A stretch of DNA of 60,247 nt from Actinomycetes bacterium (GTDB lineage Bacteria; Actinomycetota; Acidimicrobiia; IMCC26256; PALSA-610). A model generated the notes under the pieces. The model was not told the DNA's origin. It saw nothing but the letters and a program-made list of their open reading frames with translations, and ran no database searches. The stretch spans positions 1 through 60,247 of the forward strand of contig JAODBI010000317.1 of assembly GCA_025463875.1 (NCBI GenBank), read 5' to 3'. Every line of letters begins with the position of its first letter. The stretch's first letter is position 1. Below, piece by piece: positions 1,122 to 51,957 of the stretch. Position numbers and translations under genes: made by a program.

Positions 1122-1157
1122 TCGAGAGAGACGTGTTGATTCGGAAGAAGGAATGCA

Positions 1158-3743: not shown

Positions 3744-3746
3744 CCC

Positions 3747-18589: not shown

Positions 18590-18668
18590 GGCGTTGGACC
18601 GAATCCACTGGATTTCAGCCCTCTGGCCAGGGGAAATCCGGGTTCGAGAATAGTCGCATCGTCTCCAC
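18590..18668 (+). pseudogene. degenerate tRNA-Ala-like remnant (copy of the 3' part of the tRNA-Ala at 12781-12857)
   Basis: Three colinear identical blocks are shared with tRNA-Ala: cagggg (18628-18633 vs 12821-12826), gggttcgag (18640-18648 vs 12832-12840) and catcgtctccac (18657-18668 vs 12844-12855). There is a 5-nt insertion in the T-arm and no pairing 5' acceptor strand, so it is not functional. Confidence 0.5.
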
Positions 18669-18710
18669 TTACCGCTGTCGCTGCGTGTCGTTGTCTGGTT
18701 TGCGAGAGTC

Positions 18711-32656: not shown

Positions 32657-33034
32657 TCAGAGCCAGGTGATCTCGGTGACCTCGCCGCCGCGAATGGTCA
32701 CGGGCACCGACGGCAACGCGCCGACGGCCGGGATCACGTAGTCGCCCTCCGGAACCACCGGATAGACCGCGGCGTGCACGGAACCTCCGGGCAGCTCGCG
32801 CTCTCGCACGGCGGTGTGCATCGCGGGCCGCTCTTCTCCGGCGCGGAAGATGTCGATTTCCCGGCCCGCGAGCTCGCGCGGCGTGTGCAACACGAGCGCG
32901 CCGATGTGGCCGCCGATGTCGAGCACCACCGTGGCTTCCCCGCTCGGGTCGAGCGTGTGCGAGTGATCCTGGGGCCCGTGATCGTGGTGCTCGTGATCGT
33001 GGTGCTCGTGATCAGGGGCGGTCGCGGGACTCAC
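32657..33034 (-). CDS. small His-rich protein (N-terminal DHEHHDHEHHDHGPQDHSH)
   Basis: The GTG start overlaps the DUF4331 stop (GTGA). The product of 125 aa reads VSPATAPDHEHHDHEHHDHGPQDHSHTLDPSGEATVVLDIGGHIGALVLH.... The 481-aa track ORF is an artefactual upstream extension of this frame. Confidence 0.6.
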   Translation of the reverse strand: MSPATAPDHEHHDHEHHDHGPQDHSHTLDPSGEATVVLDIGGHIGALVLHTPRELAGREIDIFRAGEERPAMHTAVRERELPGGSVHAAVYPVVPEGDYVIPAVGALPSVPVTIRGGEVTEITWL

Positions 33035-34566: not shown

Positions 34567-34607
34567 TCCTCACCTCTTCCCAGGTCGAGTGTGTGCGTAG
34601 GCGCGGA

Positions 34608-34880
34608 TCAGCGCGACGCTCTGTAGAGCAGCGCCGCGAGGCGCCTGTCCTTCACGGTGATCTCACGATCGCCCGCGTAGATGGCGACCTCACCGGTTTG
34701 CACGTCGCGCAGGTGCGCGACGACGTGTTCCTTCACGCGCGCACTTGCCGGAACCGACGGTGGCTTCTCGTCGGCGCCCGCGACCTCCGCGAACGAGAGC
34801 GGTGCGGCCGCCGCCGCGCCCGCCACTGCCGCCGCCACGGATGCGTGCTTCAGGAAGTCGCGCCGATTCGTCGGTTCCAC
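34608..34880 (-). CDS. small protein with twin-arginine (Tat) signal
   Basis: MEPTNRRDFLKHASVAAAVAGAAAAAP... has the RRxFLK Tat motif and a hydrophobic region. It is the first gene of the minus-strand operon. Confidence 0.55.
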   Translation of the reverse strand: MEPTNRRDFLKHASVAAAVAGAAAAAPLSFAEVAGADEKPPSVPASARVKEHVVAHLRDVQTGEVAIYAGDREITVKDRRLAALLYRASR

Positions 34881-34964
34881 GATTGGACCCTCCTAGATCG
34901 TCGATCGACCGGGCCGGTTGCTCGACATTCGACACGACCGTCCGGGTTGGATGACGCGAACGAG

Positions 34965-34977
34965 TGAACAACGTTCA
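34965..34977. promoter_or_regulatory. TGAAC-AAC-GTTCA palindrome, candidate Fur-family operator in the divergent promoter region
   Basis: A perfect 5-3-5 inverted repeat in the 220-bp region between the Tat/DUF4331 operon and cbiM. A Fur-family regulator is encoded at the end of the cbi operon. Confidence 0.3.
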
Positions 34978-35100
34978 ACGGCTCGCTGACTCATTGAAGA
35001 ACACGGACGCGACGAAATCCAGCGATCCGCTCAGATACGAACACCTCGCATCTGCGAACACGCGGCAACTTGTTTGGGCAACGGGTAGGGGGGCGAGAGG

Positions 35101-36195
35101 GTGCACATTCCGGACGGGTATCTGAGCCCGAGCACATGCGCCGTCGCCGCGGGCGCAATGACACCGGTGTGGTTCACGGCGGGACGACGCCTGCGCAAGG
35201 TCGTCACCCATCGATATGCCCCGCTTGTCGCACTCGCAGCCGCGTACTGCTTCTGCGTGATGATGTTCAACGTCCCGATTCCGGACGGCACAACTGCGCA
35301 CGCGATCGGCGGAGTGCTGATTGCCGTATTGCTCGGACCGTGGGCCGCGGTCGTGGCGGTCTCGGTCGCGCTCGCGATCCAAGCCCTCTTCTTCGGTGAC
35401 GGCGGTGTTCTCGCCTTTGGGGCCAATGCGCTGAACATGGCATTCGTCATGCCGTTCGTCGGCTACGGCGTGTACGTCTCGCTCGCCGGACGCGCTCCGC
35501 TGCAGTCACGACGAAGGGCCGTCGCGGCTGGAGCCGGGGCGTACGTCGGCCTCAATGCGGCCGCGCTCTTTGCGGCAGTAGAGCTCGGGTTACAGCCGGC
35601 GCTGTTCCACACCGCCAACGGCACGCCGCTGTACGCACCGTTCCGTCTGTCGCAGACGATCCCGGCGCTGGCGCTGGCCCATCTCACCGTCGCGGGGGCG
35701 GTGGAGTGTGCGTTGACGATCGGTGTCGTCACCTATCTGCAGCGCGCCAATGTCCCGCTCCTGCGTCTCAATCACCGCGACGTTCCCCTCGACGATGCCG
35801 AAGCCCACGATCGCCGACTTTCGGAGAACGCGCGGCGACGGGGCCGGGGCCGCGTCGCGCTGCTCGTCTTCGGGATCGGCGCCCTGCTCACGCCGATCGG
35901 ACTGCTGGCGCAGGGCAACGCGTTCGGCGAGGACGCACCGGCCGACCTCGACTTGCACAGGTATCACCTGCAGTCGGTACCGAACGGGTTGGCCCACTAC
36001 GCCGGCTTCTGGCATCACGCACTCTTGGCCGGATACGGCTTCGGGCACGACGCCCACCCGATCTTCGGCTATGTCGTGTCGGCGATCGTCGGGATGGCCG
36101 CCATCGCGGCTGTGGCGTTCCTCCTCGTCGCGCTCCTCGGTCGCGCGCGATCGCGATACGGCCCGCGCTCGGGCGCGCGATCGGTACCGCGATGA
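35101..36195 (+). CDS. cbiM: ECF transporter substrate-capture component CbiM/NikM fused to a CbiN/PDGLE-like C-terminal domain
   Basis: The GTG start gives MHIPDGYLSP, the N-terminal metal-ligand motif of CbiM/NikM. It is polytopic, with a C-terminal extension containing SVPNGLAHYAGFW and a final TM segment. Confidence 0.9.
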   Translation: MHIPDGYLSPSTCAVAAGAMTPVWFTAGRRLRKVVTHRYAPLVALAAAYCFCVMMFNVPIPDGTTAHAIGGVLIAVLLGPWAAVVAVSVALAIQALFFGDGGVLAFGANALNMAFVMPFVGYGVYVSLAGRAPLQSRRRAVAAGAGAYVGLNAAALFAAVELGLQPALFHTANGTPLYAPFRLSQTIPALALAHLTVAGAVECALTIGVVTYLQRANVPLLRLNHRDVPLDDAEAHDRRLSENARRRGRGRVALLVFGIGALLTPIGLLAQGNAFGEDAPADLDLHRYHLQSVPNGLAHYAGFWHHALLAGYGFGHDAHPIFGYVVSAIVGMAAIAAVAFLLVALLGRARSRYGPRSGARSVPR

Positions 36196-37100
36196 CGACG
36201 CCCGAGTGGTTGACCCGGCCCGAGACGCGGTTCGGCCCGTGCACTTGCTGCGGCCGGCGCTCGAAAGGCGATCTCGTCGAGAAGACGCTCGCCGGTAGCA
36301 GCCGCTTGATCCGTTCGGCGATGTTCTCCGCCGACATGGCGGCCCGGGACGGCTTCCTGCAGCGGACGGATGCGCGGGTCAAGGTGGTCGCCACCGTCGC
36401 GCTCCTCCTTGTCGTCGCGCTCGTACATCACGTCGCAGTCGTCATCGGGCTGTACGCCGCGGTGCTCGTTCTCGGCGTTGTCTCGCGCATCCCGTGCCGG
36501 TTCCTGCTCACGCGGGTCTGGTGCTTCGTGCCGCTCTTCACGGGCGTCGTTGTGTTGCCCGCCGCCTTCAGCTTCGTCACACCCGGCCATGTCGTCGTTC
36601 CGCTCGGAACCTGGTTCGGCACACCGGTCGGGCTCACGAGTCAAGGTCTCACGACCGCGGCGTTGGTCGTGACGCGGGTCGCGACTTCGATCTCGCTCGT
36701 CGTGTTGGTCACCATCACGACACCGTGGCCACGGCTGCTGGCCGCGCTGCGCGCCCTCTTCGTGCCACGCGCCTTCGTCGTGGTGCTGGCGCTCGCCTAC
36801 CGGTACCTGTTCGATCTCCTGAACACCGTCACCGACATGTACGAGGCGCGCAAAGCGCGGGCCCCGCGCGATCACGACGTCGCGCGTAGTCGTGCGTTCG
36901 TGGCGGCAACTGCGGGCGCGACCTTCGGTAAGGCGCACGCCCTCTCCGAGGAGGTCTACCTCGCGATGGTCGCGCGCGGCTACGCCGGTCAGGCGACGGC
37001 GATCGATCGCGGACGGATCGCGTGCGCAGATGTCTACGTGTTTGCTGCGGCCGTCACGATCGTCGTTGCCGCAATGGGAGTCGACCATGTCCTCCACTGA
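36192..37100 (+). CDS. cbiQ: ECF transporter transmembrane (T) component CbiQ
   Basis: The ATG at 36192 overlaps the cbiM stop (ATGA). It is polytopic, with the conserved ARxxR region (MYEARKARAPR). Confidence 0.8.
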   Translation: MTTPEWLTRPETRFGPCTCCGRRSKGDLVEKTLAGSSRLIRSAMFSADMAARDGFLQRTDARVKVVATVALLLVVALVHHVAVVIGLYAAVLVLGVVSRIPCRFLLTRVWCFVPLFTGVVVLPAAFSFVTPGHVVVPLGTWFGTPVGLTSQGLTTAALVVTRVATSISLVVLVTITTPWPRLLAALRALFVPRAFVVVLALAYRYLFDLLNTVTDMYEARKARAPRDHDVARSRAFVAATAGATFGKAHALSEEVYLAMVARGYAGQATAIDRGRIACADVYVFAAAVTIVVAAMGVDHVLH

Positions 37101-37968
37101 GGTGTTCGCGGTCGCCGACGTGCACTATCGCTATCTCGAGCGGTTCGTCGCTCTGGCCGGCGTATCGCTCGACGTTCACGCGGGCGAACGTGTCGGGCTG
37201 CTCGGCGCGAATGGATGCGGCAAGTCGACCCTGCTGAAGGTATTGGCCGGGCTCGTGCATCCCGACCGCGGCACGGTGAGCGGCTTCGGGAAGGAGCTGA
37301 CGGAAGCCGCGCTCGAGGACGAACAGTTCGCCCGTGGGTTCCGCGCTCGGGTCGGCTTCGTCTTCCAGAGCTCCGACGCGCAACTCTTCTCGCCGACGGT
37401 CCGCGACGAGGTCGCGTTCGGTCCGCTGCACCTCGGTTTCGATGGCGCCGAGATCGAGCAAAGGGTCGACGACGTGCTCGCGCTCCTCGGCATCGCCGAG
37501 CTCGCCGACCGCGCGCCGTATCAACTCTCCGGAGGCGAGAAGAAGCGCGTGGCGATCGCGTCGGTGCTCGTGACCAATCCCGACGTGTTGCTGTTCGACG
37601 AGCCGACCGCGGCGCTCGATCCGCGCACGCAGCACTGGCTGCTCGACCTCGTCGTCGAGCTGCATCGGGCGGGCAAGACCATCGTCTGCGCGACGCACGA
37701 TCTCGCGAGCCTCGACCAGGTCGCCGACCGGTGCATCGTGCTGTCGGAGAACCACGACGTCGTCGCGATCGGCCCTCCGCAGGAGATCCTCGCCGACGTC
37801 GACCTGCTCGAAGCGACGAACCTTGTGCACACCCACGAGCACCGTCACCGGAACGGGATCCACACCCATCGCCACGATCTCGACCATCACCGGCCCTCGA
37901 TATCGGCGAACTGGGAGGCCGATGAGTTGCGGACGCATTCCACGGAGCGAGGAACCCCGACGTCATGA
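37087..37968 (+). CDS. cbiO: ECF transporter ATPase CbiO with His-rich C-terminal tail
   Basis: Walker A is GANGCGKST, the signature is LSGGEKKRVAIA and Walker B is LLFDEPTAALD. The tail reads HTHEHRHRNGIHTHRHDLDHH. Confidence 0.9.
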   Translation: MSSTEVFAVADVHYRYLERFVALAGVSLDVHAGERVGLLGANGCGKSTLLKVLAGLVHPDRGTVSGFGKELTEAALEDEQFARGFRARVGFVFQSSDAQLFSPTVRDEVAFGPLHLGFDGAEIEQRVDDVLALLGIAELADRAPYQLSGGEKKRVAIASVLVTNPDVLLFDEPTAALDPRTQHWLLDLVVELHRAGKTIVCATHDLASLDQVADRCIVLSENHDVVAIGPPQEILADVDLLEATNLVHTHEHRHRNGIHTHRHDLDHHRPSISANWEADELRTHSTERGTPTS

Positions 37969-38453
37969 GCATCACCGCCATCCGCGCCATCGAAGCGTTG
38001 CGCGCCGAAGGCCGTCGCATCACGACGGCTCGGCGCACGATCATCGAGTTGCTGGGCGCCACCAACGATCATCTCACCGCGGAGCACATTGCCACCGCAG
38101 TGCAACACGCATATCCCGAGATCCATGTGTCGACCGTGTATCGCACGCTCGAGTCGCTCGACGAGTGGGGTCTGGTCGAGCACGTGCACCGCGGTCACGG
38201 TGCCGCGTTCTTTCATCTCGCCGCGTCGCATCCGCACATGGTGTGCGAAGCGTGCGGTCGCGTGATCGACGTCCCGCAGGAGGAGTTCGACGCGCTGGTC
38301 GCGCGCGTACGCGACGTGTACGGCTTCGACATCGACGTCGCGCACAATGCGCTCATGGGCCGCTGTCTCGTGCACGATCCTCGCGCCGGCGGTCTCCTCG
38401 CGCCGCCGGTCTCCTCGCGTGAGGGGGCCGGACCGGGCGCACGGGACGGTTAG
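37965..38453 (+). CDS. Fur-family metalloregulator (Nur/Zur-like by context)
   Basis: The start overlaps the cbiO stop. The wHTH region reads RITTARRTIIELL...HLTAEHIA...VSTVYRTLESL. The His cluster is HVHRGHGAAFFHL..HPHMVCEACG. Confidence 0.85.
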   Translation: MSITAIRAIEALRAEGRRITTARRTIIELLGATNDHLTAEHIATAVQHAYPEIHVSTVYRTLESLDEWGLVEHVHRGHGAAFFHLAASHPHMVCEACGRVIDVPQEEFDALVARVRDVYGFDIDVAHNALMGRCLVHDPRAGGLLAPPVSSREGAGPGARDG

Positions 38454-38530: not shown

Positions 38531-41500
38531 ATGCTCTTTCCACTCGTCGCGCGCGCTCGTCGCGCGGGCGTAGTCGTCATCGTGACGGCCTTCGTCTTCA
38601 GCGGCATCGTCAGCGTCGTCTCCACGACACCGGCAAATGCGGCGGGGACAGCGACGCTCGTGCAGCACCCCACGCGCCAGACGACCGCCGACTTCCCGCC
38701 GAACACCGATTTCGCGGTGCCGTGGACGGTTGCGCCGACGCCGGGTGACACCTTTCTCGTCGCGGCCAGCAACTACTGCTCGACATCGTCGACGACGCCG
38801 GCAATCACATCTGATCCGGGTGGTTGGACGCTCGCGACGCACGCCTTCGGCACGAACGAAGGTGGATTCATGTGGGGCAAGTTGCTGCTGTGGCAGTGGA
38901 CCGGCGCCGGTGCGCCCGGGAACGTCGTCGTGCAGATGCAAGGTGGTACGCCGTCGTGCGACATGAGCGTCGCCTCCTTCGAGTATCAGGGGCTGCAACC
39001 GAGCCCCGTCGACGTGAACTTGCAGACGAGTTTCAACGGGACCCCGGCCCAGTGGACGCTGCCGACCGTCACGACGGCGCAGGACAACGAATTGCTGTTC
39101 GTCGTCGAAGCCAACCGCAAGACGATCACCTCGGTCACGTCCGTCACCCCGGGCTTCACGATCGAGTCGAACAAGGTGAGCAGCGGCGGCACCACCGACA
39201 TGGGGCTTGCGATCGCCGACCGGGTGGCGACGACGGCCGGCGCGTACACGCCGGTGATCAATTTCTGCGGGGGCTGTGGCGGGCATCCCGGCGCGATCGT
39301 GCTCGGATTGAGGATCGCGCCCGCCTCCGGCACCGCGCCCGCGATCTCGAATGTCGCGGTCAGCAACATCACCGGTACGTCGGCCACGGTGACGTGGACG
39401 ACCGATCAGGTGTCGACGAGCGCGGTCGCGTACGGCTCCTCGACCACATACGGCTCGTCGGCGACCAGCGCCTCCGGAACGTCGCACTCGATCACGCTCA
39501 ACGGGCTCGCGACCGGATCGACGTATCACTACCAGGTCAGCTCGACCACCACCGGCGGCACCACGACGGCGTCGGATGCGACGTTCACGACGCTCACGCC
39601 GCCTCCCGTCATCACCACCGGCCCGACACCTTTGGCCATCAGCGCGACGACTGCGACGATCGCGTGGTCGACCGATCGCGCGTCGACGAGCCAGGTGCAG
39701 TACGGCACCGCCCCGAGCTATGGCAGCACGACGACACTCGACGGGAGCAACGTCACCGCGCACTCGCAGACCCTCGTCGGGCTCACGCCGTCGACCACGT
39801 ACCACTTCGCCGTGACGAGCGCGGGTGCCGGAGGAAGCGTGACATCCGCGGACGCGACGTTCGTCACGACCGCGCCCGGAAAGACGAATCAGACGATCAC
39901 GTTCGGCGCGCTCTCGGGGGCAACGCTGACGCAGTCACCGTTGACCGTCGCGGCGACGGCGACCTCGGGGCTGCCCGTCTCGTTCTCGTCCTCGACGCCC
40001 GCGGTGTGCACGAGCGGCGGTGGGCTCGGTGCGACGATCACGTTGCTCGCGCCGGGCACGTGCACCCTGCAGGCCGACCAACCCGGTGATGCCACGTTCA
40101 ACCCGGCGCCGCCCGTGCAGCATAGCTTCGGCGTAGCCGATGCAAGCCAGATCGCGTACCCCGATCTGATCGGCGAGATCCCGACCAACGGATTCGGGAT
40201 CTCCCATCCGACCACCACCACGAAGGAGTTCGACTACACGCACATCATCTACAACGGTGGCGCCGGCCCGCTCGAGGTGCAGCCGACCAACTACAACACC
40301 ACGACGAATCTCGCGACCGCGGTGCAGCAGCTCTACAGCTACAACGGGTCGACGCCGGTGCTCGCGCAACAGCTCACGGCGCGCGATCAGTTCTTCTACC
40401 ACCAGGCCCACGGCCACTATCACTTCCCGCTCGCGACCTTCGGGCTCTACGGCGTCAACCCCGACGGCTCGATCGGAAGCGCGGTGGCGGTGAGCCCGAA
40501 GAACGGGTTCTGTCTCGGCGACGACGTACGTCTCGACGCATCGCTCCCGCACTCGCCCGCGGTCAAGGGTTACGACGGCAGCACGTGCACGAATCCCAAC
40601 GCGGTGCGCGGCATCTCGTCGGGCTGGGGCGACCGCTACGACAAGGCCGATCCGGGCCAGGCGATCGACATCACCGGTCTGCCCGACGGCACCTACTGGT
40701 TCCACTCCGTCGTCGACCCCGACAACAACTTCGCCGAGTCCGACAAGACGAACAACGTCACCGACATCAAGGTGCAGCTCAGCGGCGACACGGTGACGCC
40801 GGTGAGCCCCCTCATGTCGCAAGGATCGTTCGTGTTCGATCAGTCCTTCGTCGTCGACGCGCTCGGTCCGGTCGCGACGCCGGCTTTCAGCACCTCGGCG
40901 CCGAACGAGATGCTGGTCGCGTTCGTGAGCGGCTTCAGCCAGGTGACGACGCTCACCTCGACGGTGGGCGGCGGGGGCTTGACGTGGACACTCGCCAAGC
41001 GCGCGAACGCGCAACCCGGAGGCGTCGACGTCTGGACCGCGATGGCCCCGACGCCGCTTTCGAACGTGGTTGTCAGCGCGACGACGAACTGGCCCGGCCG
41101 CGACACGTCGATGACGTTGTTCGCGATCAAGGGCGCGTCGGGGATCGGCGCGACCGCGAGCCGGAGCGCGGCGTCCGGTGTGCCGTCGATCTCGCTCACG
41201 ACGACCAAGGCCGGCTCGTGGGTGATGACGAACGGCAACGACCCGAGCACCTACTCACCGCACCAGATCGGCGCGGGCAAGACGATGTTCCACCAGTACC
41301 TGGATTCGTCTCAGCGCCAGGGTGCGTGGATGGAGGCGACGACCGCGCCGGTACCCACGGCGGGCACGGTCGTTTCGTTCGCCGATACGACGCCGCCGAA
41401 CGACCAGTGGAACGAGGTCGCGGTGGAGATCCTCCCGGCCGCGAGCGTCGACGTCACCGCGCCGACGATCAGCGCGGTCGCGGCGAACAACCCGGGCCCG

Positions 41501-44326
41501 ACCAGTGCTTCGGTGACCTGGACCACCGACGAGCCCGCGACCTCGAAGGTCGAGTACGGCCCCGATCCGTCGTTGGGACAGTCGACGAGCATCGATCCGA
41601 CACTCGTGAACCAGCACGGTCAACCGCTCAACGGCCTGACATCGAACACGACCTACTCGTACCGGGTCGTGAGCACCGACGGGTCCGGCAACACCGCGAC
41701 CGGCCCGACGTCGACGTTCACCACCGCGCCGCCGCGCACGACGCCGCCGGTGTTCACGAACGTGCATGTCGTCGACCTCCAGGCCGACCAGGCCACGATC
41801 TCGTGGACCACCGACGAACCCGCCGATACCCGGGTCGACTACGGCATCACACCCGGGTACGGGACGGCGTCGGCTTCGGATCCGACGATGGTGTCGACGC
41901 ACTTCGCGCTCATCACGAATCTCGCGCCGACGACCGTGTACCACTACCGGGTCGACAGCACCGACGCGTTCGCGAACGCGGGGTCGTCTGCCGACTTCAG
42001 CTTCCAGACGCTCGCGGTCGCTCCGCCGATCGTCGTGGAGCAGTCGGTCTTCCGGGACGGGACCGGCAATGTGACGACGGCCGCGTTCAACACCGCGAGC
42101 CCGGGCGATCTCCTCGTCGCGTTCGTCGGCGCCTCCGGGAACGCAGGCACACCCCAATCGGCGACCGTGACCGGTGCGGGCCTGACCTGGACTCTCGACC
42201 AACGCGCCAACGCGCAGAACGGCACCGCCGAGGTGTGGCACGCGTTCGCGACGGGTCCACTCGTCAATGCGACCGTGACGTCGACCCTCGGAACCACCGC
42301 CGACCAGTCGCTGTCGGTCGTCGCATTCAGCGGCGCGCGAGGCATCGGTGCGACGGTAGGGAGCGGTGGGGCTATCGGCGCGCCGAGCGCGGACCTCAGC
42401 ATGACGGGCGCGAATTCGCTCGTGTACGCGGTGGGCAACGACTGGGATCATGCGACCGCGCGTACCTTGCCCGCAGGTCAGTCCATCGTGCATCAGTTCG
42501 TCGACGCCGTGTCGGCCGACACGTTCTGGACCCAGGCGCTCAACGGCACGGGCGGTCCGGTCGAGTCCGACATCACGATGGCCGACACCGCGCCGACCGT
42601 CGATCGCTGGAACTTCACGGCGGTCGAGATCCAACGCCCGATCGGTGTGACGCCACCGCCTCCGACCGCGCCGCTCATCAGCGCCGTGACCGCGACGAAC
42701 ATCACCACAACCTCGGCGACGATCTCGTGGGCCACGGACCAGATCGCGACGTCGCAGGTGCAGTACGGGACGTCCGCGAGCTACGACAACTCCACGACCG
42801 TGGCTCTCGCGCCGGTGACCGGCCACACGCAGAACCTCGGTGGACTCTCGCCCGGGACCGTGTACCACTACGCGGTCACCAGTACGAACGGAGTCGGCTC
42901 GACGACGTCCGGCGACTTCACATTCACGACCGCGCCGACGCCGAAGACCCCGCAGACGATCACCTTCGGCGCGCTCGCCGACGTGCCGTTGACGCAGTCG
43001 ACGATCGCCGTGAGCGCAACCGCGTCGTCCGGGCTGACCGTGTCGTTCTCGTCGACCACGCCCACGGTGTGCACGGTCACCGGTAGCACCGTGACGCTGC
43101 TGACCGGCGGCCTGTGCACCGTGCGCGCCGACCAGCCCGGCGACGCGACCTTCGCGGCGGCCGCGCCGGTTTCGCAGAGCTTCACGGTCGGGGCCGCGAA
43201 GATCGACCAGACGATCACGTTCGCCGCGCTCGCCGACCGGACCCTGCTGCAAACTCCCCTCACCGTGACTGCGGTCGCCTCCTCGGGACTGGCGGTTGCG
43301 TTCTCGTCGACCACACCAACGGTGTGCGCGGTCACCGGCGCGGCGGTCACGCTGTTGGGCGGAGGAACGTGCACGATTCAGGCCGGCCAAGCGGGCAACA
43401 GCGTCTACAACGCCGCGCCGGCGGTGCAGCAGAGCTTCACGGTGACCAAGGCCGCGCAGACGATCACGTTTGCCGCGGTCGCGAACACGACATTGGCGCA
43501 AAGTCCGGTCGCCGTGACCGCGACCGCCTCCTCGGGACTGGCGGTCGCGTTCTCGTCTACCACACCAACGGTGTGCGCGGTCACCGGCGCTTCGGTGTCG
43601 CTGCTGGCCGTCGGGACGTGCACCATCCAGGCCGCGCAGGCGGGCAACGCGATCTACACCGCCGCCCCGCCCGTCCAGCAGAGCTTCACGGTCTCGCCGA
43701 TCACCGGGATCTCGGTCGACAAGACCGTCTTCAAGGACGGCAAGGGCGCGCAGACGACCGCCGCGTTCAGCACGGCCGCCGCGGGCGAGGTGTTGGTCGC
43801 GTTCGTCGGCGCCGACGGTACGGCTACCGGCCAGACCGCGACCGTTACCGGCGCGGGACTGACGTGGACGCTCGTACGGCGGACGAATGTTCGGCCCGGC
43901 ACAGCGGAGATATGGCGCGCGGTCGCCCCGTCGGTGCTGACCAATGTCACGGTGACGTCGACCCTCGGTCTGGCGACTGCCTTCGACCAGTCCTTGACGG
44001 TTGTGGCGTTCAGGGGCGCGACCGGAGTAGGTGCGAGTGCGAGTGCCAACGCGGCCACGGGTGCGCCGACAGTCGCGTTGACGACGACGAAGGCGGGCTC
44101 GTGGGTCTACGCGGTCGGCAACGACTGGGACCGCGCGGTCGCGCGCACGGTCGGCGCGGGCCAGGCGATCGTCCACCAGTTCGTCGACGCGTCGATCGGC
44201 GACACGTACTGGACGCAGTCGGCCACCGGACCTACCGCGGCCCTCGTGACGGTGGTGTCGATGTCGGACACCGCCCCGACGAACGATCGCTGGAACTTCA
44301 CCGCCGTCGAGGTGCTCGCGGGCTAG
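38531..44326 (+). CDS. giant secreted/anchored multidomain protein: 4 copies of an unassigned ~200-aa module, 5 FN3-like domains, 4 Ig-like (QTITF-type) domains and a central lysyl-oxidase-like domain
   Basis: The ATG at 38531 lies 12 nt after ggagg, and the N-terminus has a hydrophobic signal/anchor. The LOX-like region at about 40150-40790 carries HGHYH, PKNGFCLGDD, GWGDRYDKADPGQAIDITGLPDGTYWF and ESDKTNN. The repeat architecture was read from the translation. Confidence 0.85.
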   Translation: MLFPLVARARRAGVVVIVTAFVFSGIVSVVSTTPANAAGTATLVQHPTRQTTADFPPNTDFAVPWTVAPTPGDTFLVAASNYCSTSSTTPAITSDPGGWTLATHAFGTNEGGFMWGKLLLWQWTGAGAPGNVVVQMQGGTPSCDMSVASFEYQGLQPSPVDVNLQTSFNGTPAQWTLPTVTTAQDNELLFVVEANRKTITSVTSVTPGFTIESNKVSSGGTTDMGLAIADRVATTAGAYTPVINFCGGCGGHPGAIVLGLRIAPASGTAPAISNVAVSNITGTSATVTWTTDQVSTSAVAYGSSTTYGSSATSASGTSHSITLNGLATGSTYHYQVSSTTTGGTTTASDATFTTLTPPPVITTGPTPLAISATTATIAWSTDRASTSQVQYGTAPSYGSTTTLDGSNVTAHSQTLVGLTPSTTYHFAVTSAGAGGSVTSADATFVTTAPGKTNQTITFGALSGATLTQSPLTVAATATSGLPVSFSSSTPAVCTSGGGLGATITLLAPGTCTLQADQPGDATFNPAPPVQHSFGVADASQIAYPDLIGEIPTNGFGISHPTTTTKEFDYTHIIYNGGAGPLEVQPTNYNTTTNLATAVQQLYSYNGSTPVLAQQLTARDQFFYHQAHGHYHFPLATFGLYGVNPDGSIGSAVAVSPKNGFCLGDDVRLDASLPHSPAVKGYDGSTCTNPNAVRGISSGWGDRYDKADPGQAIDITGLPDGTYWFHSVVDPDNNFAESDKTNNVTDIKVQLSGDTVTPVSPLMSQGSFVFDQSFVVDALGPVATPAFSTSAPNEMLVAFVSGFSQVTTLTSTVGGGGLTWTLAKRANAQPGGVDVWTAMAPTPLSNVVVSATTNWPGRDTSMTLFAIKGASGIGATASRSAASGVPSISLTTTKAGSWVMTNGNDPSTYSPHQIGAGKTMFHQYLDSSQRQGAWMEATTAPVPTAGTVVSFADTTPPNDQWNEVAVEILPAASVDVTAPTISAVAANNPGPTSASVTWTTDEPATSKVEYGPDPSLGQSTSIDPTLVNQHGQPLNGLTSNTTYSYRVVSTDGSGNTATGPTSTFTTAPPRTTPPVFTNVHVVDLQADQATISWTTDEPADTRVDYGITPGYGTASASDPTMVSTHFALITNLAPTTVYHYRVDSTDAFANAGSSADFSFQTLAVAPPIVVEQSVFRDGTGNVTTAAFNTASPGDLLVAFVGASGNAGTPQSATVTGAGLTWTLDQRANAQNGTAEVWHAFATGPLVNATVTSTLGTTADQSLSVVAFSGARGIGATVGSGGAIGAPSADLSMTGANSLVYAVGNDWDHATARTLPAGQSIVHQFVDAVSADTFWTQALNGTGGPVESDITMADTAPTVDRWNFTAVEIQRPIGVTPPPPTAPLISAVTATNITTTSATISWATDQIATSQVQYGTSASYDNSTTVALAPVTGHTQNLGGLSPGTVYHYAVTSTNGVGSTTSGDFTFTTAPTPKTPQTITFGALADVPLTQSTIAVSATASSGLTVSFSSTTPTVCTVTGSTVTLLTGGLCTVRADQPGDATFAAAAPVSQSFTVGAAKIDQTITFAALADRTLLQTPLTVTAVASSGLAVAFSSTTPTVCAVTGAAVTLLGGGTCTIQAGQAGNSVYNAAPAVQQSFTVTKAAQTITFAAVANTTLAQSPVAVTATASSGLAVAFSSTTPTVCAVTGASVSLLAVGTCTIQAAQAGNAIYTAAPPVQQSFTVSPITGISVDKTVFKDGKGAQTTAAFSTAAAGEVLVAFVGADGTATGQTATVTGAGLTWTLVRRTNVRPGTAEIWRAVAPSVLTNVTVTSTLGLATAFDQSLTVVAFRGATGVGASASANAATGAPTVALTTTKAGSWVYAVGNDWDRAVARTVGAGQAIVHQFVDASIGDTYWTQSATGPTAALVTVVSMSDTAPTNDRWNFTAVEVLAG
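42950..43695 (+). repeat. 3 tandem ~249-bp intragenic repeats (Ig-like QTITF...QSFTV domains), partly near-identical at DNA level
   Basis: For example, gcctcctcgggactggcggNtgcgttctcgtcNaccacaccaacggtgtgcgcggtcaccggcgc occurs in copies 2 and 3 with 2 mismatches over ~65 nt. A fourth, diverged copy lies at about 39890-40140. Confidence 0.85.
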
Positions 44327-44340: not shown

Positions 44341-44529
44341 ATGGCACACCCGACAGCGCTCGTCGTGGCAATCGTCAGGATCGGCGAGGAGCTCGGCCTC
44401 GACGCCGACAGCCGGAACAAGCTCCACTGGGCGGCGCTCCTGCACGACGTCGGCAAGCTCGACGTGGCGGCCGCGATCCTGAACAAGACCGAGAAGCTCA
44501 CCGCTGACGAATGGCAGCTAGCGGGATGA
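44341..44529 (+). pseudogene. truncated HD-GYP/HD-domain fragment (62 codons)
   Basis: MAHPTALVVAIVRIGEELGLDADSRNKLHWAALLHDVGKLDVAAAILNKTEKLTADEWQLAG* matches only the central part of HD-GYP domains (LLHDVGK, PDxIL-like, KLTxxE). The N- and C-terminal parts are missing. Confidence 0.6.
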
Positions 44530-44630: not shown

Positions 44631-45125
44631 ATGCGCAAGCCTTCCGCCCGGCTCGTCGTCGCGGCTCTCGCGATCCCCGTATTCGGCGGATTTGCGACCT
44701 ACGCCGCGGCCCAGGTGAGCAGCACGCCGTCGCCGCAGGTCGTGATCCCCGCCGTCCGTACCTCTTCGACGAAGACCCCGTCGTCCGCGAACACCGCTTC
44801 CCGCGTGCCCGGTCACGACGTCAACGACGACAAAGGCGGACTTCGCAACGACAGCCTTCGCACTGCGACCGGCTCGACTCCGGCGTCGACGCCCAACACC
44901 GTCGACGACCACGGCAACGACGCGCTCAAAGGAACCGGCGTTGCCAACCCGGCCGGCACGACTCCGGCATCGACCCCCAACACGATCGACGACCACGGCA
45001 ACGACGCGGTCACCGGGAGCAGCGTGCCGACGACCGGCGGCTCGACACCGGCGTCGACGCCCAACACCGTCGACGACCACGGCGGTCGCAACCGCGGCCA
45101 GGGCGGCAGCGGTCACGGCTCCTGA
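44631..45125 (+). CDS. secreted repeat protein with 3 x 28-aa G(S/T)TPASTPNT(V/I)DDHG... repeats
   Basis: An RBS aggag precedes the ATG at 44631, and the signal peptide is MRKPSARLVVAALAIPVFGGFATYAAAQ. Exact 84-nt repeats occupy 44871-44954, 44955-45038 and 45039-45122, ending at the stop codon. Confidence 0.7.
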   Translation: MRKPSARLVVAALAIPVFGGFATYAAAQVSSTPSPQVVIPAVRTSSTKTPSSANTASRVPGHDVNDDKGGLRNDSLRTATGSTPASTPNTVDDHGNDALKGTGVANPAGTTPASTPNTIDDHGNDAVTGSSVPTTGGSTPASTPNTVDDHGGRNRGQGGSGHGS

Positions 45126-45146: not shown

Positions 45147-45800
45147 CTATCCCGGATCGGGCGCGGGCAGATGCTCCTTCGCCCACAGCGCCGCCTGCGT
45201 CCGATCCGTGACCCCGAGCTGTTGGAACACCGCGGTCAGGTGTGCCTTGACCGTGCGTTCGCTGATGCCGAGTCGGCGCGCGATCTGTTTGTTCGCCAGT
45301 CCGGTCGCCACCAGACCGAGCACCTCGGCCTCCCGCCGGCTCAGGTTGCGCGACGGCTGTCGCGCTCGTTGCGAATCGAGCAGGACCCGGGCCGCGGTCG
45401 GGTCGAGTGGCGCTCCGCCGGCGTGCGCGGCACGGATCGCGCCGATCACCTCGTCGGGTGTCGCGTCCTTCAACAGGTAGCCACTCGCTCCGGCCTGCAG
45501 CGCGTCGAGGACGCGCCGTTGCTCGGTAAACGAGGTGAGGATGACGACGCGCAGGTGGCGTTCGTCGGTCGCGGCGGCGGCGAGCACCCGGCGGGTCGCT
45601 TCGATCCCGTCGACGACCGGCATCGACAGATCCATCAACACGATGTCGGGCCGCGCGGTCGCCGCGAGCGCGACTGCTTCTTCGCCGTTGTTCGCGGTAC
45701 CGACGACTTCGATGTCGTCGGCGGTCGCGAGCACCTGCCGGAGCCCGCTGCGAACGACGGCGTGGTCGTCGACGATGGCCACTCGAATCACGTCTGTCAT
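45147..45800 (-). CDS. NarL/FixJ (LuxR-type HTH) response regulator
   Basis: The receiver domain reads IRVAIVDDH...DIVLMDLSMP and the LuxR HTH reads LSRREAEVLGLVATGLANKQIARRLGISERTVKAHL. The start overlaps the kinase stop (ATGA). Confidence 0.9.
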   Translation of the reverse strand: MTDVIRVAIVDDHAVVRSGLRQVLATADDIEVVGTANNGEEAVALAATARPDIVLMDLSMPVVDGIEATRRVLAAAATDERHLRVVILTSFTEQRRVLDALQAGASGYLLKDATPDEVIGAIRAAHAGGAPLDPTAARVLLDSQRARQPSRNLSRREAEVLGLVATGLANKQIARRLGISERTVKAHLTAVFQQLGVTDRTQAALWAKEHLPAPDPG

Positions 45801-47125: not shown

Positions 47126-47514
47126 CCGCTCCTTCACACGCCCCGACTCACGATCGCGTTTGGTCCGATCGCCGGTTCTGCGGAGATTCCCGAGAGACGT
47201 ACCCACGACGACACGCGATCGACGAGGATCGCACAGGCTTCCTGCGCTGAGGTGAATTCTCCCGTTTGATGGCTTCCTGACCGGAACCGGCGGGCGGGCG
47301 CGGGCGGGCGCGGAGGCCGGTCGACCGCCCAGCGCCCGCTCGCGTGAGGGAGTCGCATTCGCGGAGGGCGGTTGCGCGCGGAGAGTAGTGTGCGAGGCCC
47401 CCGGCTTGATGGCGTAGTTCCTTTCGTCCAGAATTCCGGGCTGGGTAGGGCTGTTGGGGCACGCGGAACCGCCGAGCGCGGATTTTCGTGCAGGGATGCA
47501 GAGGCGGAAATCGA

Positions 47515-50500
47515 ATGGCGTCACGCCGGACACTCGCGCTCCGGGTGGGAGTCGCGTCGCTCGCGGCATTTGTGGGCGTGTTCGGACTCGTCACGCGCAG
47601 TGTCGGCGCGGCGGCGACCGTGCTCGTCGGCGACACCACCGTCGAGCCGGCCGTCGATTACAACCCGGCCGGCGTCGCCGAGGCGTTCCCCTTCACCGCG
47701 ACCGCGGGCGGGACCGTCAGCCAGATCAACGTGTACGTCGACGCCGGAGCCACCGCGACCCGCGTCGCAGTCGGCATGTACGCCGACACCGCCGGGCACC
47801 CCGGCCCGATGTTGACCCAGGGGATCATCGGGTCGGTCACCAACGCGGGCTGGAACACCGCAACCGTGCCCTCTGTATCGGTGGCTTCCGGCACGAAGTA
47901 CTGGCTCGCGTTGCTCGCGCCGCTCGGCGCCGGGGTCTTGAAGTACCGCGACAAGTGTTGTGCGAGCCCGATCGTCTCCGAAAGTGCGAACCAGGCCTCC
48001 GACGGCTCGCTGCCCACGACCTGGACGCGCACGTCGAGTTGGAGTGACGGGCCCGCGTCGATCTACGCCGCGACCGCGGCCGCGCCCGGTCCTGTTCTCA
48101 CGCAGGTTGCCGCCGCGCCGACGAACAACGGCGCGACGATCACGTGGACGACCGATGTGCCCGCCACGTCGCAGGTGGCGTACGGACCCACCGCGCAACT
48201 GGGCACGTCGAGTCCGCTCGACGCGGCGTTGACGACGGGCCACTCGGTCACGATCGGCGGGCTGCTCGCGGGCACGCAGTACTTCTTCCAGGTCTCGAGC
48301 GCCGACGCGTCGCAACAGGTGAGCACGTCGTCGGTGGCCTCGTTCACGACCACGTCACCATCGCAGCCGCCGCCGGATCAGGTCGGGCAGTGGGGTTCAC
48401 TCATCAACTGGCCGCTCGTCGCGGTGCACTCGTCGCTCATGCCCAACGGCAACGTCTTGTTGTGGGACGGTTGGGAGACACCGTCCAAGGCGGTCGTCTG
48501 GAACCCGTCGTCGCAGGCGTTCACCGACGTGACCACCGCGTCGGGCCTGTTCTGTTCGGGCCACGCCCAACTCGCCGATGGTCGCATCTTCGTCGCGGGC
48601 GGACACGATCAGGGGACCGGATTCACCGAGACCGGCATCGTCGACTCGAACATCTTCAACCCGGCAAACAACCAGTGGACGCGCGTTGCCGACATGCACT
48701 TCCCGCGTTGGTACCCGAGCGCGACGACGTTGCCCGACGGGCGCGTGCTCGTCATCTCCGGCATGACGACCTCGGGTCGTTGGGCCGACACCCCCGAGGT
48801 GTACAACCCCGCGACCAACACGTGGACCTTGCTCACCGGGATCTCGACGCCCGAGGTGCACGAAGCGGAATACCCTCTGACGTCGGTCATGCCCGACGGT
48901 CGCGTGCTCGTCGTCGCCGGGAGCACCGGCGCCGCGTTCATCATGGACGTCAACGCGCAGACGTGGACACCGGTTCCCGGTTCCGCCGGCCACGTCAACG
49001 GCTCGGCCGCGTTCTACGCGCCGGGCAAGGTTCTGTACACCGGCGGCGGCAACACTGCGAGCGAGAGCAACCCGGCGTTCACCGGTGCGTCGGTGCTCGA
49101 CGCCACGGTCGCCAACCCGGCGTGGCGTTCCGTCTCGCCGATGGCCAAGACGCGCTACATGCACTCGACGACGGTGCTGCCCGACGGCCAGGCGTTCATC
49201 GTGGGCGGCGCGAACGTCGCCAGCCAACAGACGACGAACCAGCAACTCGTCGACGAGCTGTGGAACCCGTCGACCGAAGCGTTCACGCCAGTGCCGCCGA
49301 TGATCGACGGTCGGATCTACCACTCCACGACGTTGTTGATGCCCGACGGTCGGGTGCTGGTCGCCGGTGGCGGACGGTTCAACGCCAACCCCGACCACTT
49401 CACCGCGCAGTACTACTCCCCGCCCTATCTCTTCAAGGGCGCGCGGCCCACGATCAGCGCGGCGCCCGCGAGCCTGAGCTACGGCCAGCCGTTCACGGTG
49501 CAGACGCCCGATGCGGCGTCGATCTCCTCGGCGGTGCTGGTCGACCTCGGCAGTGACACGCACACCCAAGACTTCAACCAGCGCCGCCTCCCGCTCACGG
49601 TGACTCCCGGTAGCGGCTCGATCTCGGTGCAGGGGCCGGCCAACAGCGCGCTCGCGCCGCCCGGCCACTACATGTTGTTCGTTCTCAACGCGCAGGGCGT
49701 GCCCTCGGTCGCGTCGATGCTCTCGGTCGGCGGGAGCGGGTCGGTCACCCCGCCGTCGGTGTCGATCGTGTCCCCCGCCGCCAACGCGACGGTCGGAGGC
49801 TCGGTGAACGTGACCGCGTCGGCCTCGTCGTCGAACAGCATCACCGGCGTGCAGTTCCTGCTCGACAATCAGCCCCTCGGCGGAACCGTCACCACGCCGC
49901 CCTTCCAGACGACGTGGAACACCGCGACCGCGACGAACGGTGCGCACACGCTGACGGCGAAGGTCACCGACTCGACCGGTGCCATGGCAACCTCGCAATC
50001 CGTCACTGTCACGGTTTCGAACGGAGCGGTCGCGACGCTCTCCGCCGAGGCCCAGGTGTTCGCCGACGGCAAGACGACGGTGACCACGCCCGGACTCACG
50101 ACCGCCAACGCGGGCGACCTCCTCGTCGCGTTCGTCGGCGCCGACGGTCCGTCGACGCTCGGCCAGACCGCCACCGTGTCGGGTGGGGGTCTCACCTGGA
50201 CGCGGGCGCGCAACCAGGCCGCGCAACCCGGTGATGCCGAAATCTGGTCGGCGCGCGTGAGCAGCACCGTGACCAACGCCACGTTCAGTGCGACGTTGGG
50301 CAAGACCGGCTACGACCTCTCGTTGAGCGTCGTCGCGTTCGCGAACGCGGCGGGAGTGGGTGCGTCCGCGGGCGCGTCGGCATTGCATGCCGCGCCGAGC
50401 GTGCCGTTGACGACGACCGCACCGGGGTCGCTGGTCTACGGAGTCGGAATCGACTGGGACAATGCCGTCGCGCACGTTCCGGTGGCCGGACAGGCCATCG

Positions 50501-51957
50501 CGCATCAATGGATCGACAGCACCACCGGCGACACGATGTGGTCGCAGGGAACACAGGCGCCGGTCGCCACGACCGGCGCAACCGTCGCGCTCGCGGATTC
50601 GTCGCCGACGACTGACCGCTTCAACCTGGCGGCGGTCGAGGTCACCGCATCGGTGACGCCGCCGCCCACGACGACCACGACCACGACGGCTCCGACGACG
50701 ACCACCACGGTCGCGCCGACGACCACGACTACGACGGTTCCGGCGACGACCACCACCACGACGACCGTGCCGCCGACGACCACCACGACTGCGACGACGA
50801 CCAGCACGACGACGACCACCACGGTGCCGCCGACGACGACGACCACGACGGCTCCCACAACGACCACCGCCGCACCGACGACCACCACGACCACGACGGT
50901 GCCGGCGAACAATCCGCCGGTCATCAGCGGGCTCGCGGTCTCCAACATCACGACCACGGGCGCGACCATCACCTGGAACACCGACACCGCGGCGATCGGC
51001 CAGGTCGAGTACGGCACGTCGGTCTCGTACGGCACGACGACCGCGCCCGACGCGGTGGCGTCGACCGCGCACTCGCAGACCCTCACCGGCCTGACACCGA
51101 TGACTAGCTATCACTTCCGCGCGCGCAGCTCCAACGCCGGTGGCCTGACCGTCACGACTGATCAGACCTTCACCACGCAGGCGGCGCCGGTCGGCGCTCA
51201 CGTCGACGGCCAGGTCGGTGTCAACGGCAAGACCACGGTTGCGGCACCTGCGTTGACGACGGGTACGCGCGACGACCTTGTCGTCGGGTTCGTGTCGACC
51301 GACGGCCCGAGCGCCGGCGGCCAGACGGCGACCGTTTCCGGCGGTGGGCTCACGTGGACACGCGTACGCGCGCAAGCGGCACAGCCCGGCGACGTCGAGA
51401 TCTGGCAGGCGCGCGCCACCGGCTTCCTCACCAACGCCGTGATTTCGGCCACGTTGTCGAAGACCGGATACGACCTGTCCTTGACCGTGGTGGCGTTCTC
51501 CAACGCGGCGGGTGTCGGTTCCTCGGCGGGTGCGTCCGCCAAATCGGGACCGCCGGCGGTGGGGCTCGCGACCACCGCCGCGGGTTCACTCGTCTACGCG
51601 ACCGGCAACGACTGGGACCGGTCCGTGGCCCGCACGCCGGTCGGCGGCCAGGCCCTCGTGCAGCAGTGGCTCGACACCGCCTCCGGCGACACGATGTGGA
51701 CGCAGGCGTCGACGAGCCCGTTCCCCAACTCGGGCCAGTCGGTGATCATGGCCGACTCCGCGCCGACGAGCGATCGCTTCAACTTCGTGGCGGCCGAGAT
51801 CACATCGGGGAACGGGGCTACCACGTTGCAGGCCGTCGCGGTCGAGCAGGCGGTGTCGCCTCCGAGCTTCGGTCACATCGTGCACTACGCCTTCCCGGCC
51901 GAGCCATCGACGTCGACCGCCCCGCTCGACAAGCGCGCGCTCGGCCTGATCGCGTAA
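47515..51957 (+). CDS. giant secreted copper-radical-oxidase (galactose/glyoxal oxidase, AA5-like) multidomain protein
   Basis: Domain order is signal peptide, DUF4082-like N-domain, FN3-like, kelch-type propeller, DUF1929-like E-set, Ig-like, 2 copies of the ~200-aa module, a Thr/Pro linker and a second FN3-like domain. The propeller carries LFCSGH, PRWYPS, RIYHST and DTHTQDFNQR. Confidence 0.9.
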   Translation: MASRRTLALRVGVASLAAFVGVFGLVTRSVGAAATVLVGDTTVEPAVDYNPAGVAEAFPFTATAGGTVSQINVYVDAGATATRVAVGMYADTAGHPGPMLTQGIIGSVTNAGWNTATVPSVSVASGTKYWLALLAPLGAGVLKYRDKCCASPIVSESANQASDGSLPTTWTRTSSWSDGPASIYAATAAAPGPVLTQVAAAPTNNGATITWTTDVPATSQVAYGPTAQLGTSSPLDAALTTGHSVTIGGLLAGTQYFFQVSSADASQQVSTSSVASFTTTSPSQPPPDQVGQWGSLINWPLVAVHSSLMPNGNVLLWDGWETPSKAVVWNPSSQAFTDVTTASGLFCSGHAQLADGRIFVAGGHDQGTGFTETGIVDSNIFNPANNQWTRVADMHFPRWYPSATTLPDGRVLVISGMTTSGRWADTPEVYNPATNTWTLLTGISTPEVHEAEYPLTSVMPDGRVLVVAGSTGAAFIMDVNAQTWTPVPGSAGHVNGSAAFYAPGKVLYTGGGNTASESNPAFTGASVLDATVANPAWRSVSPMAKTRYMHSTTVLPDGQAFIVGGANVASQQTTNQQLVDELWNPSTEAFTPVPPMIDGRIYHSTTLLMPDGRVLVAGGGRFNANPDHFTAQYYSPPYLFKGARPTISAAPASLSYGQPFTVQTPDAASISSAVLVDLGSDTHTQDFNQRRLPLTVTPGSGSISVQGPANSALAPPGHYMLFVLNAQGVPSVASMLSVGGSGSVTPPSVSIVSPAANATVGGSVNVTASASSSNSITGVQFLLDNQPLGGTVTTPPFQTTWNTATATNGAHTLTAKVTDSTGAMATSQSVTVTVSNGAVATLSAEAQVFADGKTTVTTPGLTTANAGDLLVAFVGADGPSTLGQTATVSGGGLTWTRARNQAAQPGDAEIWSARVSSTVTNATFSATLGKTGYDLSLSVVAFANAAGVGASAGASALHAAPSVPLTTTAPGSLVYGVGIDWDNAVAHVPVAGQAIAHQWIDSTTGDTMWSQGTQAPVATTGATVALADSSPTTDRFNLAAVEVTASVTPPPTTTTTTTAPTTTTTVAPTTTTTTVPATTTTTTTVPPTTTTTATTTSTTTTTTVPPTTTTTTAPTTTTAAPTTTTTTTVPANNPPVISGLAVSNITTTGATITWNTDTAAIGQVEYGTSVSYGTTTAPDAVASTAHSQTLTGLTPMTSYHFRARSSNAGGLTVTTDQTFTTQAAPVGAHVDGQVGVNGKTTVAAPALTTGTRDDLVVGFVSTDGPSAGGQTATVSGGGLTWTRVRAQAAQPGDVEIWQARATGFLTNAVISATLSKTGYDLSLTVVAFSNAAGVGSSAGASAKSGPPAVGLATTAAGSLVYATGNDWDRSVARTPVGGQALVQQWLDTASGDTMWTQASTSPFPNSGQSVIMADSAPTSDRFNFVAAEITSGNGATTLQAVAVEQAVSPPSFGHIVHYAFPAEPSTSTAPLDKRALGLIA
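50655..50908 (+). repeat. Thr/Pro-rich low-complexity linker (about 80 aa, mostly T with interspersed P/A/V)
   Basis: The translation reads PPPTTTTTTTAPTTTTTVAPTTTTTTVPATTTTTTTVPPTTTTTATTTSTTTTTTVPPTTTTTTAPTTTTAAPTTTTTTTVPA. The DNA is ACC/ACG-rich. Confidence 0.9.

Follow-up and report, generated by a model that had tools for sequence, protein, structure and literature searches.

Lysyl oxidase (LOX) domains have been reported in five bacterial phyla, Actinobacteria included, and all but three of the prokaryotic LOX proteins consist of the LOX domain alone (Grau-Bove et al. 2015, PMC4448552). The archaeal enzyme HTU-LOX from Haloterrigena turkmenica is an active amine oxidase of relaxed specificity, sensitive to beta-aminopropionitrile (BAPN). 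It oxidizes many free amines, aminoglycosides and polymyxin; its authors propose nitrogen acquisition or competition, and the native role of prokaryotic LOX has been described as ‘enigmatic’ or ‘cryptic’ (PMC6452851). [quoted passage not shown] Here we analyze a gene for a large LOX protein in a 60,247-nucleotide (nt) stretch of DNA from an Actinomycetes bacterium (contig JAODBI010000317.1 of assembly GCA_025463875.1), the whole of which we call the window. We propose that the gene probably encodes an exported, modular member of this copper- and LTQ-dependent family, aimed at its target by an unannotated repeated domain that we call module X.

Identity and catalytic residues of the LOX domain

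The modular LOX protein is encoded by one ORF (open reading frame) on the + strand, 38486/38531..44326. Residue numbers are counted throughout from GTG 38486, where the longest ORF begins; the gene is likely to start downstream at ATG 38531, which has GGAGG 11 nt upstream, giving a protein of 1,931 amino acids (aa). Its GC content at third codon positions (GC3) is 0.89, the level to be expected of a real gene in a window of ~68% GC.

Residues 553-775 are a bona fide LOX-fold domain, and the match is far beyond chance. The Pfam profile PF01186 (Lysyl_oxidase) recognizes the excised domain with 54.1 bits (E 2.1e-14) and the whole protein with 48.6 bits, against a cut-off of 20.4. This match spans profile positions 73-199 of 204, and the N-terminal third of the domain, from a ‘PDL’ motif onward, aligns with bacterial relatives. 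A phmmer search against all PDB chains identified human LOXL2 (5ZE3, E 1.3e-8). The AlphaFold model of the domain, made with 18 sequences in the alignment, has a predicted local distance difference test score (pLDDT) of 84 and a predicted template modelling score (pTM) of 0.80; in a Foldseek comparison with the PDB its sole significant match was again LOXL2 5ZE3 (E 3e-8, template modelling score (TM) 0.64), the next match having an E of 0.12. A first-pass annotation of the sequence had claimed a LOX-like catalytic domain here and had named the Pfam profile among its checks; that profile, the phmmer match and the Foldseek comparison bear the claim out. Every sequence- and fold-level test that we ran agrees with membership of the LOX family, except for the animal-specific set of disulfides.

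The same annotation had aligned three motifs by hand with the animal catalytic domain. All of the motifs it quoted are in the sequence, in frame and at the codons it gave, and phmmer arrives at the same pairing: HGHYH, which had been matched with the animal HQHYH, is placed on H626-R-H628-Y-H630 of LOXL2, and the proposed LTQ lysine and tyrosine codons fall on Lys653 and Tyr689. The corresponding positions in the window are as follows.

40163..40168 (+): Asp560-Leu561 of the ‘PDL’ motif, equivalent to LOXL2 Ca2+ ligands Asp549/Leu550 (alignment)
40409..40423 (+): HGHYH with His642, His644 and His646, predicted Cu2+ ligands equivalent to LOXL2 His626/628/630 (phmmer, hmmalign)
40496-40525 (+): PKNGFCLGDD, in frame
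40499..40501 (+): Lys672 (AAG), predicted LTQ lysine, equivalent to LOXL2 Lys653 (phmmer alignment)
40511..40588 (+): Cys676 (40511-40513) and Cys701 (40586-40588), equivalent to the LOXL2 disulfide Cys657-Cys673 (alignment)
40622-40702 (+): GWGDRY...TYWF, in frame
40637..40639 (+): Tyr718 (TAC), predicted to be the tyrosine of LTQ and, in the precursor, the fourth metal ligand, equivalent to LOXL2 Tyr689 (phmmer alignment)
40736..40756 (+): ESDKTNN with Glu751, Asp753, Asn756 and Asn757, equivalent to LOXL2 Ca2+ ligands Glu722, Asp724, Asn727 and Asn728 (alignment)

All six Ca2+ ligands, the three histidines, the lysine, the tyrosine and a Cys657-Cys673-type pair are present, and judged by these residues the domain is apparently catalytically intact. 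Cys676 and Cys701 are its only two cysteines; the other eight of the animal five-disulfide set, which form four of the five disulfides in the LOXL2 catalytic domain, are absent. Bacterial relatives also keep just this one pair, and the five-disulfide set is a mark of animal LOX rather than of the LOX family as a whole.

Conservation was assessed in an hmmalign alignment of 171 domains (170 from 169 relatives, plus the window’s own), with counts taken among non-gap positions. The LTQ lysine is kept in 167 of 169 domains, the LTQ tyrosine in 164 of 167 and Cys676 in 167 of 169, and the Ca2+ ligands are largely retained; in alignment A1, which takes in distant relatives, the lysine is invariant and the tyrosine at least 90% conserved. 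The near-universal presence of lysine and tyrosine in the clade indicates selection for the LTQ cofactor. Each of the three histidines is kept in 117-128 domains, a count reduced by the 9-13 gaps in each column and possibly also by loop-length shifts in the alignment. A two-column offset of HGHYH from the HxHWH of far relatives, seen when A1 was aligned with MAFFT, was rejected as a loop-length artefact, since phmmer and hmmalign place the motif correctly. In one relative of 1,257 aa (P0194), HxHxH is replaced by ‘TPPTDYNF’, with the lysine, the cysteine and the rest of the fold kept; judged by its sequence, this protein of the same modular subfamily appears to be a derivative without catalytic function. 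Because true loss of the histidine motif does occur in a few relatives, its retention in the window protein is informative.

LOX domains are also more common than the first-pass annotation supposed when it called them sporadic in bacteria. An exhaustive HMMER search of 1.84 billion cluster representatives returned 4,117 LOX relatives at E<=1e-3, of which 1,624 reach E<=1e-10, and that view is equally at odds with the five bacterial phyla already on record (PMC4448552). The domain in the window adds one more member to a family already described; it does not represent a new type of system, and it brings no new chemistry.

Modular architecture, its recurrence and module X

The LOX protein has 15 domains overall, including five FN3, four Ig-like and three copies of module X, each of ~200 aa and unannotated, so that the arrays and the repeated uncharacterized module noticed around the LOX domain at first reading are confirmed. 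Its parts, all on the + strand, are listed below.

38531..44326 (+): LOX-protein gene, 1,931 aa (ORF analysis)
38531..38641 (+): signal peptide, aa 16-52, MLFPLVARARRAG-hydrophobic stretch-PANA/AG (read by inspection of the sequence)
38645..39334 (+): orphan N-terminal domain, aa 54-283, family unassigned (no Pfam match)
39341..39865 (+): two FN3 domains, aa 286-368 and 381-460 (domain search)
39881..40129 (+): Ig-like domain, aa 466-548, one more copy of the unit found three times at 42944-43687 (Big_3_5 match, weak, E 0.039)
40142..40810 (+): LOX catalytic domain, aa 553-775 (Pfam PF01186, LOXL2 alignment, fold)
40838..41434 (+): module X copy 1, aa 785-983 (repeat comparison)
41465..42007 (+): two FN3 domains, aa 994-1079 and 1089-1174 (domain map)
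42029..42631 (+): module X copy 2, aa 1182-1382 (repeat comparison)
42674..42928 (+): FN3 domain, aa 1397-1481 (domain search)
42944..43687 (+): three Ig-like domains, aa 1487-1734 (domain map)
43691..44323 (+): module X copy 3, aa 1736-1946, the C-terminal end of the protein (unannotated beta-sandwich, phage-minor-tail-like fold in the model)

We found no database record of the exact protein; a C-terminal fragment 99% identical to it occurs in JGI sample 3300044833. Only two homologues of the orphan N-terminal domain are detectable, both of them N-terminal fragments. The independent fragments P0290 (88% identical) and P0291, from other samples, begin with a similar signal peptide followed by this same domain. 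The idea that it is a diverged module X was rejected (hhalign probability 0.07%), and its BLAST similarity to the C-terminal domain of P0149 is marginal (E 0.008). Promoter and terminator scans at both ends of the gene gave nothing usable.

The architecture had been called unfamiliar, but it is not a one-off. We scanned one genome per GTDB species with the close alignment set A3 as query, A1 being too diverse, and obtained 58 loci. LOX is fused to module X in 38 of these, mostly in the order signal peptide-LOX-X-(FN3)-X, and in 23 of 80 metagenome loci. The closest genome match to the LOX protein, in metagenome-assembled genomes (MAGs) of Acidimicrobiia, is just 75% identical, which places the window’s own genome outside the scanned set. 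Cultured carriers of the fusion include Nakamurella lactea, Phycicoccus sp., Pedococcus bigeumensis and Microlunatus ginsengisoli; among the MAG carriers are members of Thermoanaerobaculia, Bryobacteraceae, Verrucomicrobiota, Dormiibacterota and Burkholderiales. Soil-type metagenomes and MAGs are the main source of relatives. Of the 169 closest cluster representatives, module X is present in 51, and 44 reach a length of 700 aa or more; in nine the LOX domain is internal.

In the closest relatives the signal peptide leads straight into LOX. What is peculiar to the window protein is an N-terminal extension of ~500 residues, which includes the orphan domain. From the LOX domain onward it fits the general pattern, with module X following within ~10-110 residues, further copies after that and a module X at the end; the same pattern is found in L001-L038 and in P0145, P0147 and P0148. 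We treat these proteins as a modular LOX + module X subfamily, a grouping defined in this analysis. We found no description of a subfamily combining LOX, module X and FN3 in the searchable literature, one of the ranked searches having been skewed by a poorly chosen term. In five loci from long-read MAGs (L005, L009, L037, L038 and L046) the gene is split over several frames, which is most simply explained by indel errors of assembly rather than by pseudogenes; the short, ‘truncated’ proteins P0001, P0002 and P0146 probably have the same indel cause.

Compared with the prokaryotic single-domain enzymes (PMC4448552; HTU-LOX, PMC6452851), the window protein shares a LOX domain behind a signal peptide and conserved catalytic motifs, but it has 15 domains and 1,931 aa and belongs to a widespread subfamily with module X and FN3. 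With animal LOX and LOXL1-4 (LOXL2 5ZE3) it shares the Pfam family, the fold, HxHxH, the LTQ lysine and tyrosine, an octahedral Ca2+ site and the Cys657-Cys673-type disulfide; in both cases the protein is secreted and the catalytic domain is joined to accessory domains. The two differ in that structure-based identity is ~20%, four of the five disulfides are missing from the window domain, and the window protein has FN3 and Ig-like domains, an orphan N-terminal domain and three copies of module X instead of a propeptide and SRCR domains. The substrate must differ as well, since a bacterial host has no collagen or elastin.

Module X itself is ~205 residues long. There are five copies in the window, with 46-61% identity among them: the LOX protein has three and the gene at 47515-51957 has two. 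Searches with it gave nothing in Pfam, even at E<=10, or in NCBIfam; a 33-sequence profile matched no PDB sequence, and among PDB folds no credible counterpart emerged (best TM 0.33). A stand-alone copy, WP_202054120.1, is named ‘hypothetical protein’ in RefSeq. Even so, the family is large and highly conserved: a protein search found it in 447 proteins, a metagenome scan confirmed at least 490 metagenomic stretches, and identity across phyla is 50-70%. Trp, Arg, Asn and Gly account for most of its invariant residues (W59, R64, W75, N144), with D145, W146, R152, Q158, W174, Q176, W201, N202 and E207 nearly invariant. A family of this size and conservation, missing from Pfam, NCBIfam and the PDB, merits a definition of its own.

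The model of module X (pLDDT 95.5) is a beta-sandwich of 14 beta-strands. Predicted viral structures (BFVD) were the only library to yield counterparts, 71 of them at E<=1e-3 (best TM 0.81; root-mean-square deviation (rmsd) ~3 A), and many of these are ‘minor tail proteins’ of Mycobacterium and Gordonia phages. The likeness to these actinobacteriophage proteins and to those of uncultured Caudovirales extends over ~215 residues (TM 0.7-0.81), and in the phage proteins too the domain tends to be the terminal module of a long, modular extracellular protein; sequence identity with module X, however, is just 10-22%.

In metagenomic ORFs module X nearly always ends 0-4 residues from the C-terminus. 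The heads joined to it, which are unrelated to one another, are LOX (23 ORFs), galactose-oxidase-like domains (nine ORFs) and, again in metagenomic ORFs, subtilase; the LOX and galactose-oxidase-like counts are inflated because loci were ranked by similarity to a module X copy from a LOX protein. Further heads are a purple acid phosphatase with six PASTA domains, G8/beta-helix, NosD-like beta-helix, RHS/PKD, L-type lectin and LamG, and module X is often accompanied by peptidoglycan-binding PASTA domains. It has no conserved lysine, which argues against module X as the LOX substrate. These features together suggest that module X is a promiscuous domain for targeting or retention, and neither a catalytic partner nor a substrate.

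Proposed function and its alternatives

We consider it probable, with a good deal of room for doubt, that the window encodes a Sec-exported modular Cu/LTQ amine oxidase of the LOX family, aimed by module X at a polymer of the cell envelope or matrix. Going by the chemistry of the family, the LOX domain would bind Cu2+ after export through His642, His644 and His646; Cu2+ and O2 would oxidize Tyr718 to dopaquinone, to which Lys672 would add to give LTQ; and the mature enzyme would convert R-CH2-NH2 to an aldehyde, NH3 and H2O2. The domain context suggests that module X would bind, target or retain the enzyme on a cell-envelope or extracellular-matrix polymer, with the FN3 and Ig-like domains as spacers. 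With module X targeting a polymer, the probable substrate would be an amine carried by that polymer, for instance peptidyl lysine or a similar amine of the envelope.

Several points weigh against this proposal. Cu binding, LTQ formation and amine oxidase activity are predicted from homology, and with four of the five LOXL2 disulfides absent, stability and maturation may differ. With HxHxH lost in relatives such as P0194, the clade can include members without catalysis. The phage label ‘minor tail protein’ is positional, which leaves binding by module X an analogy. No LPXTG motif or membrane anchor was found in the LOX protein, a Pfam scan gave no anchor domain, and the C-terminus is module X, not a hydrophobic anchor. 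The ‘giant surface protein’ of the first-pass annotation has a signal peptide, by inspection; its retention at the surface is a hypothesis drawn just from the nature of module X. Finally, no conserved gene neighbor among the 58 loci hints at a substrate.

The alternative that survives best keeps the chemistry and changes its purpose. We think it unlikely, yet deserving of serious attention, that the protein is an extracellular amine oxidase of broad specificity for nitrogen scavenging or antagonism rather than for modification of its own envelope. It would release NH3 from environmental amines, or it would act on competitors through H2O2 and aldehydes or by inactivating amine-bearing antibiotics, and module X would bind environmental biomass or foreign cells. 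HTU-LOX, the sole characterized prokaryotic LOX, has relaxed specificity and a proposed role in nitrogen acquisition or competition (PMC6452851), module X is also part of RHS-toxin-like, subtilase, phosphatase and beta-helix proteins, kinds that commonly serve attack or foraging, and the relatives’ mainly soil-type origin agrees with such a role. Yet a protein of 1,931 aa with three binding modules and nine spacers is elaborate for small soluble amines, and the frequent PASTA partners of module X suggest peptidoglycan, self or foreign; the evidence does not separate self from non-self targets.

It is very unlikely that the LOX domain is a non-catalytic remnant, a pseudoenzyme serving as a binding or spacer beta-sandwich in an adhesin-like protein. 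The decay of HxHxH to ‘TPPTDYNF’ in P0194, the minority of non-His residues in the histidine columns and the non-catalytic modules that surround the domain would fit this idea, but the full complement of histidines, LTQ residues, Ca2+ ligands and flanking disulfide in the window protein, and the almost universal lysine and tyrosine of the clade, speak against it. Hardly credible is an assembly or fusion artefact in which a repeat-rich N-terminal gene for the orphan domain, FN3 and Ig-like units was misjoined to a signal peptide-LOX-module X gene: the signal-peptide-proximal LOX of the closest relatives, the risk of misassembly posed by near-repeat FN3 and Ig-like units before and after LOX, and the lack of the exact protein elsewhere on record would allow it, but the frame is continuous with uniform GC3 of 0.89, no second signal peptide precedes the LOX domain, LOX is internal in nine of 169 independent relatives and many metagenomic ORFs have module X upstream of LOX, and independent fragments match both ends at 88-99% identity.

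If the protein is a module X-targeted amine oxidase, as we propose, the recurrent LOX-module X context offers an experimental handle on the native role of prokaryotic lysyl oxidases. Once a ligand of module X is found, the site at which the oxidase acts, and hence what it oxidizes, should emerge.

A second copper oxidase and other genes of the window

The other two copies of module X in the window belong to a gene 3 kb downstream of the LOX gene.

47515..51957 (+): galactose-oxidase-like copper radical oxidase, 1,480 aa, secreted, with two module X copies at nt 50029-50649 and 51193-51810

Its domains are a DUF4082-like N-terminus (by eye), FN3, a Kelch propeller, a galactose-oxidase-like E-set domain, Big_7, a Thr/Pro-rich linker and the two copies of module X. 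Against the PDB it matches galactose oxidase (1GOF, E 1e-49) and GlxA (4UNM, 5e-49). The active-site residues of galactose oxidase, which we take to be Cys228, Tyr272, Tyr495, His496 and His581, all have equivalents in the protein (Cys347, Tyr400, Tyr602, His603 and His683). Galactose-oxidase/GlxA-type enzymes resemble LOX in being secreted mononuclear copper oxidases with a self-generated, amino-acid-derived cofactor that produce an aldehyde and H2O2, and module X is joined to the family repeatedly in metagenomes as well as here. The two classes are not homologous: the galactose-oxidase type has a Kelch beta-propeller and a Tyr-Cys radical and oxidizes alcohols, not amines. Module X is thus common to LOX, in dozens of species that include cultured actinomycetes, and to a second class of aldehyde-forming copper oxidase.

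One could imagine that module X brings both kinds of copper oxidase to one polymer, where LOX-derived aldehydes would cross-link the envelope or matrix. Candidate amines would be the free epsilon-amines that lysine or diaminopimelate carries in the stem peptides of peptidoglycan, or else surface-protein lysines. We regard this extension as improbable; if true, cross-linking of envelope or matrix by LOX would give prokaryotes a parallel to the way animals cross-link their extracellular matrix. The adjacency of the two oxidase genes is seen in the window alone (in none of the 58 genome loci and none of the 80 metagenome loci), and being unique to the window it is suggestive only.

A conserved operon partner of LOX, such as a copper chaperone or a substrate gene, was considered and rejected, as no neighbor is conserved in the 58 loci. 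The window’s own neighbors (Fur, CbiM, MauE, a small repeat protein and a histidine kinase/response regulator) do not recur beside LOX in those loci, and the LOX + module X clade showed no partner when flanking ORFs were clustered de novo. A metal-related cluster (33031-38453) lies just upstream of the LOX gene and consists of DUF4331 (-), CbiM with PDGLE, an ABC ATPase and a Fur-family regulator, whose gene ends 33 nt before the longest LOX ORF; no member of this cluster was seen beside LOX in other loci. Downstream, 15 nt past the LOX stop codon, a 62-aa HD-domain fragment (‘...LLHDVGK...’; 44341-44529, +) has the look of a gene remnant; it recurs behind the 99%-identical piece of the LOX gene on the JGI contig (L139 780-968). 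It is followed by a 164-aa ORF (44631-45125, +; GC3 0.80) with a signal peptide and three His/Asp/Gly-rich ‘TPASTPNT[VI]DDHG(N/G)’ repeats. This ORF has no Pfam match and no homologue in the 58 related loci, and it might be a metal binder or a substrate-like protein.

Between the two oxidase genes, at 45147-47590 (-) and divergent from the galactose-oxidase-like gene, are a LuxR-type response regulator and a HisKA_3 histidine kinase, which may regulate either oxidase or both. The overlap between a gene for a MauE-family membrane protein (PF07291; 51950-52654, +) and the stop codon of the galactose-oxidase-like gene suggests that the two genes are co-transcribed. Elsewhere MauE is known from the clusters that encode methylamine dehydrogenase, a quinone-cofactor enzyme.

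The window begins with gyrB (cut by its edge), gyrA and a DUF3566 gene (3-4232, +), an order that we take to be typical near oriC in Actinobacteria, and it has tRNA genes at 6316-6389 (-) and 12781-12854 (+). A large protein encoded at 7865-11065 (+) has an MprF-like phosphatidylglycerol lysyltransferase C-terminal domain. Lysyl-phosphatidylglycerol would put lysine amines on the membrane surface, and any link between this protein and the LOX enzyme is pure speculation. The region from 14000 to 20000 may be foreign or mis-framed DNA: GC falls to ~0.65, the GC3 of its ORFs is lower (0.72-0.77), and a 1,164-codon open frame (14378-17869) overlaps a subtilase gene (13446-15125). About 40 nt upstream of that subtilase gene, at 13322-13406 (+), is an Rfam match to the c-di-GMP-II-GAG riboswitch, with 41.1 bits against a threshold of 40.

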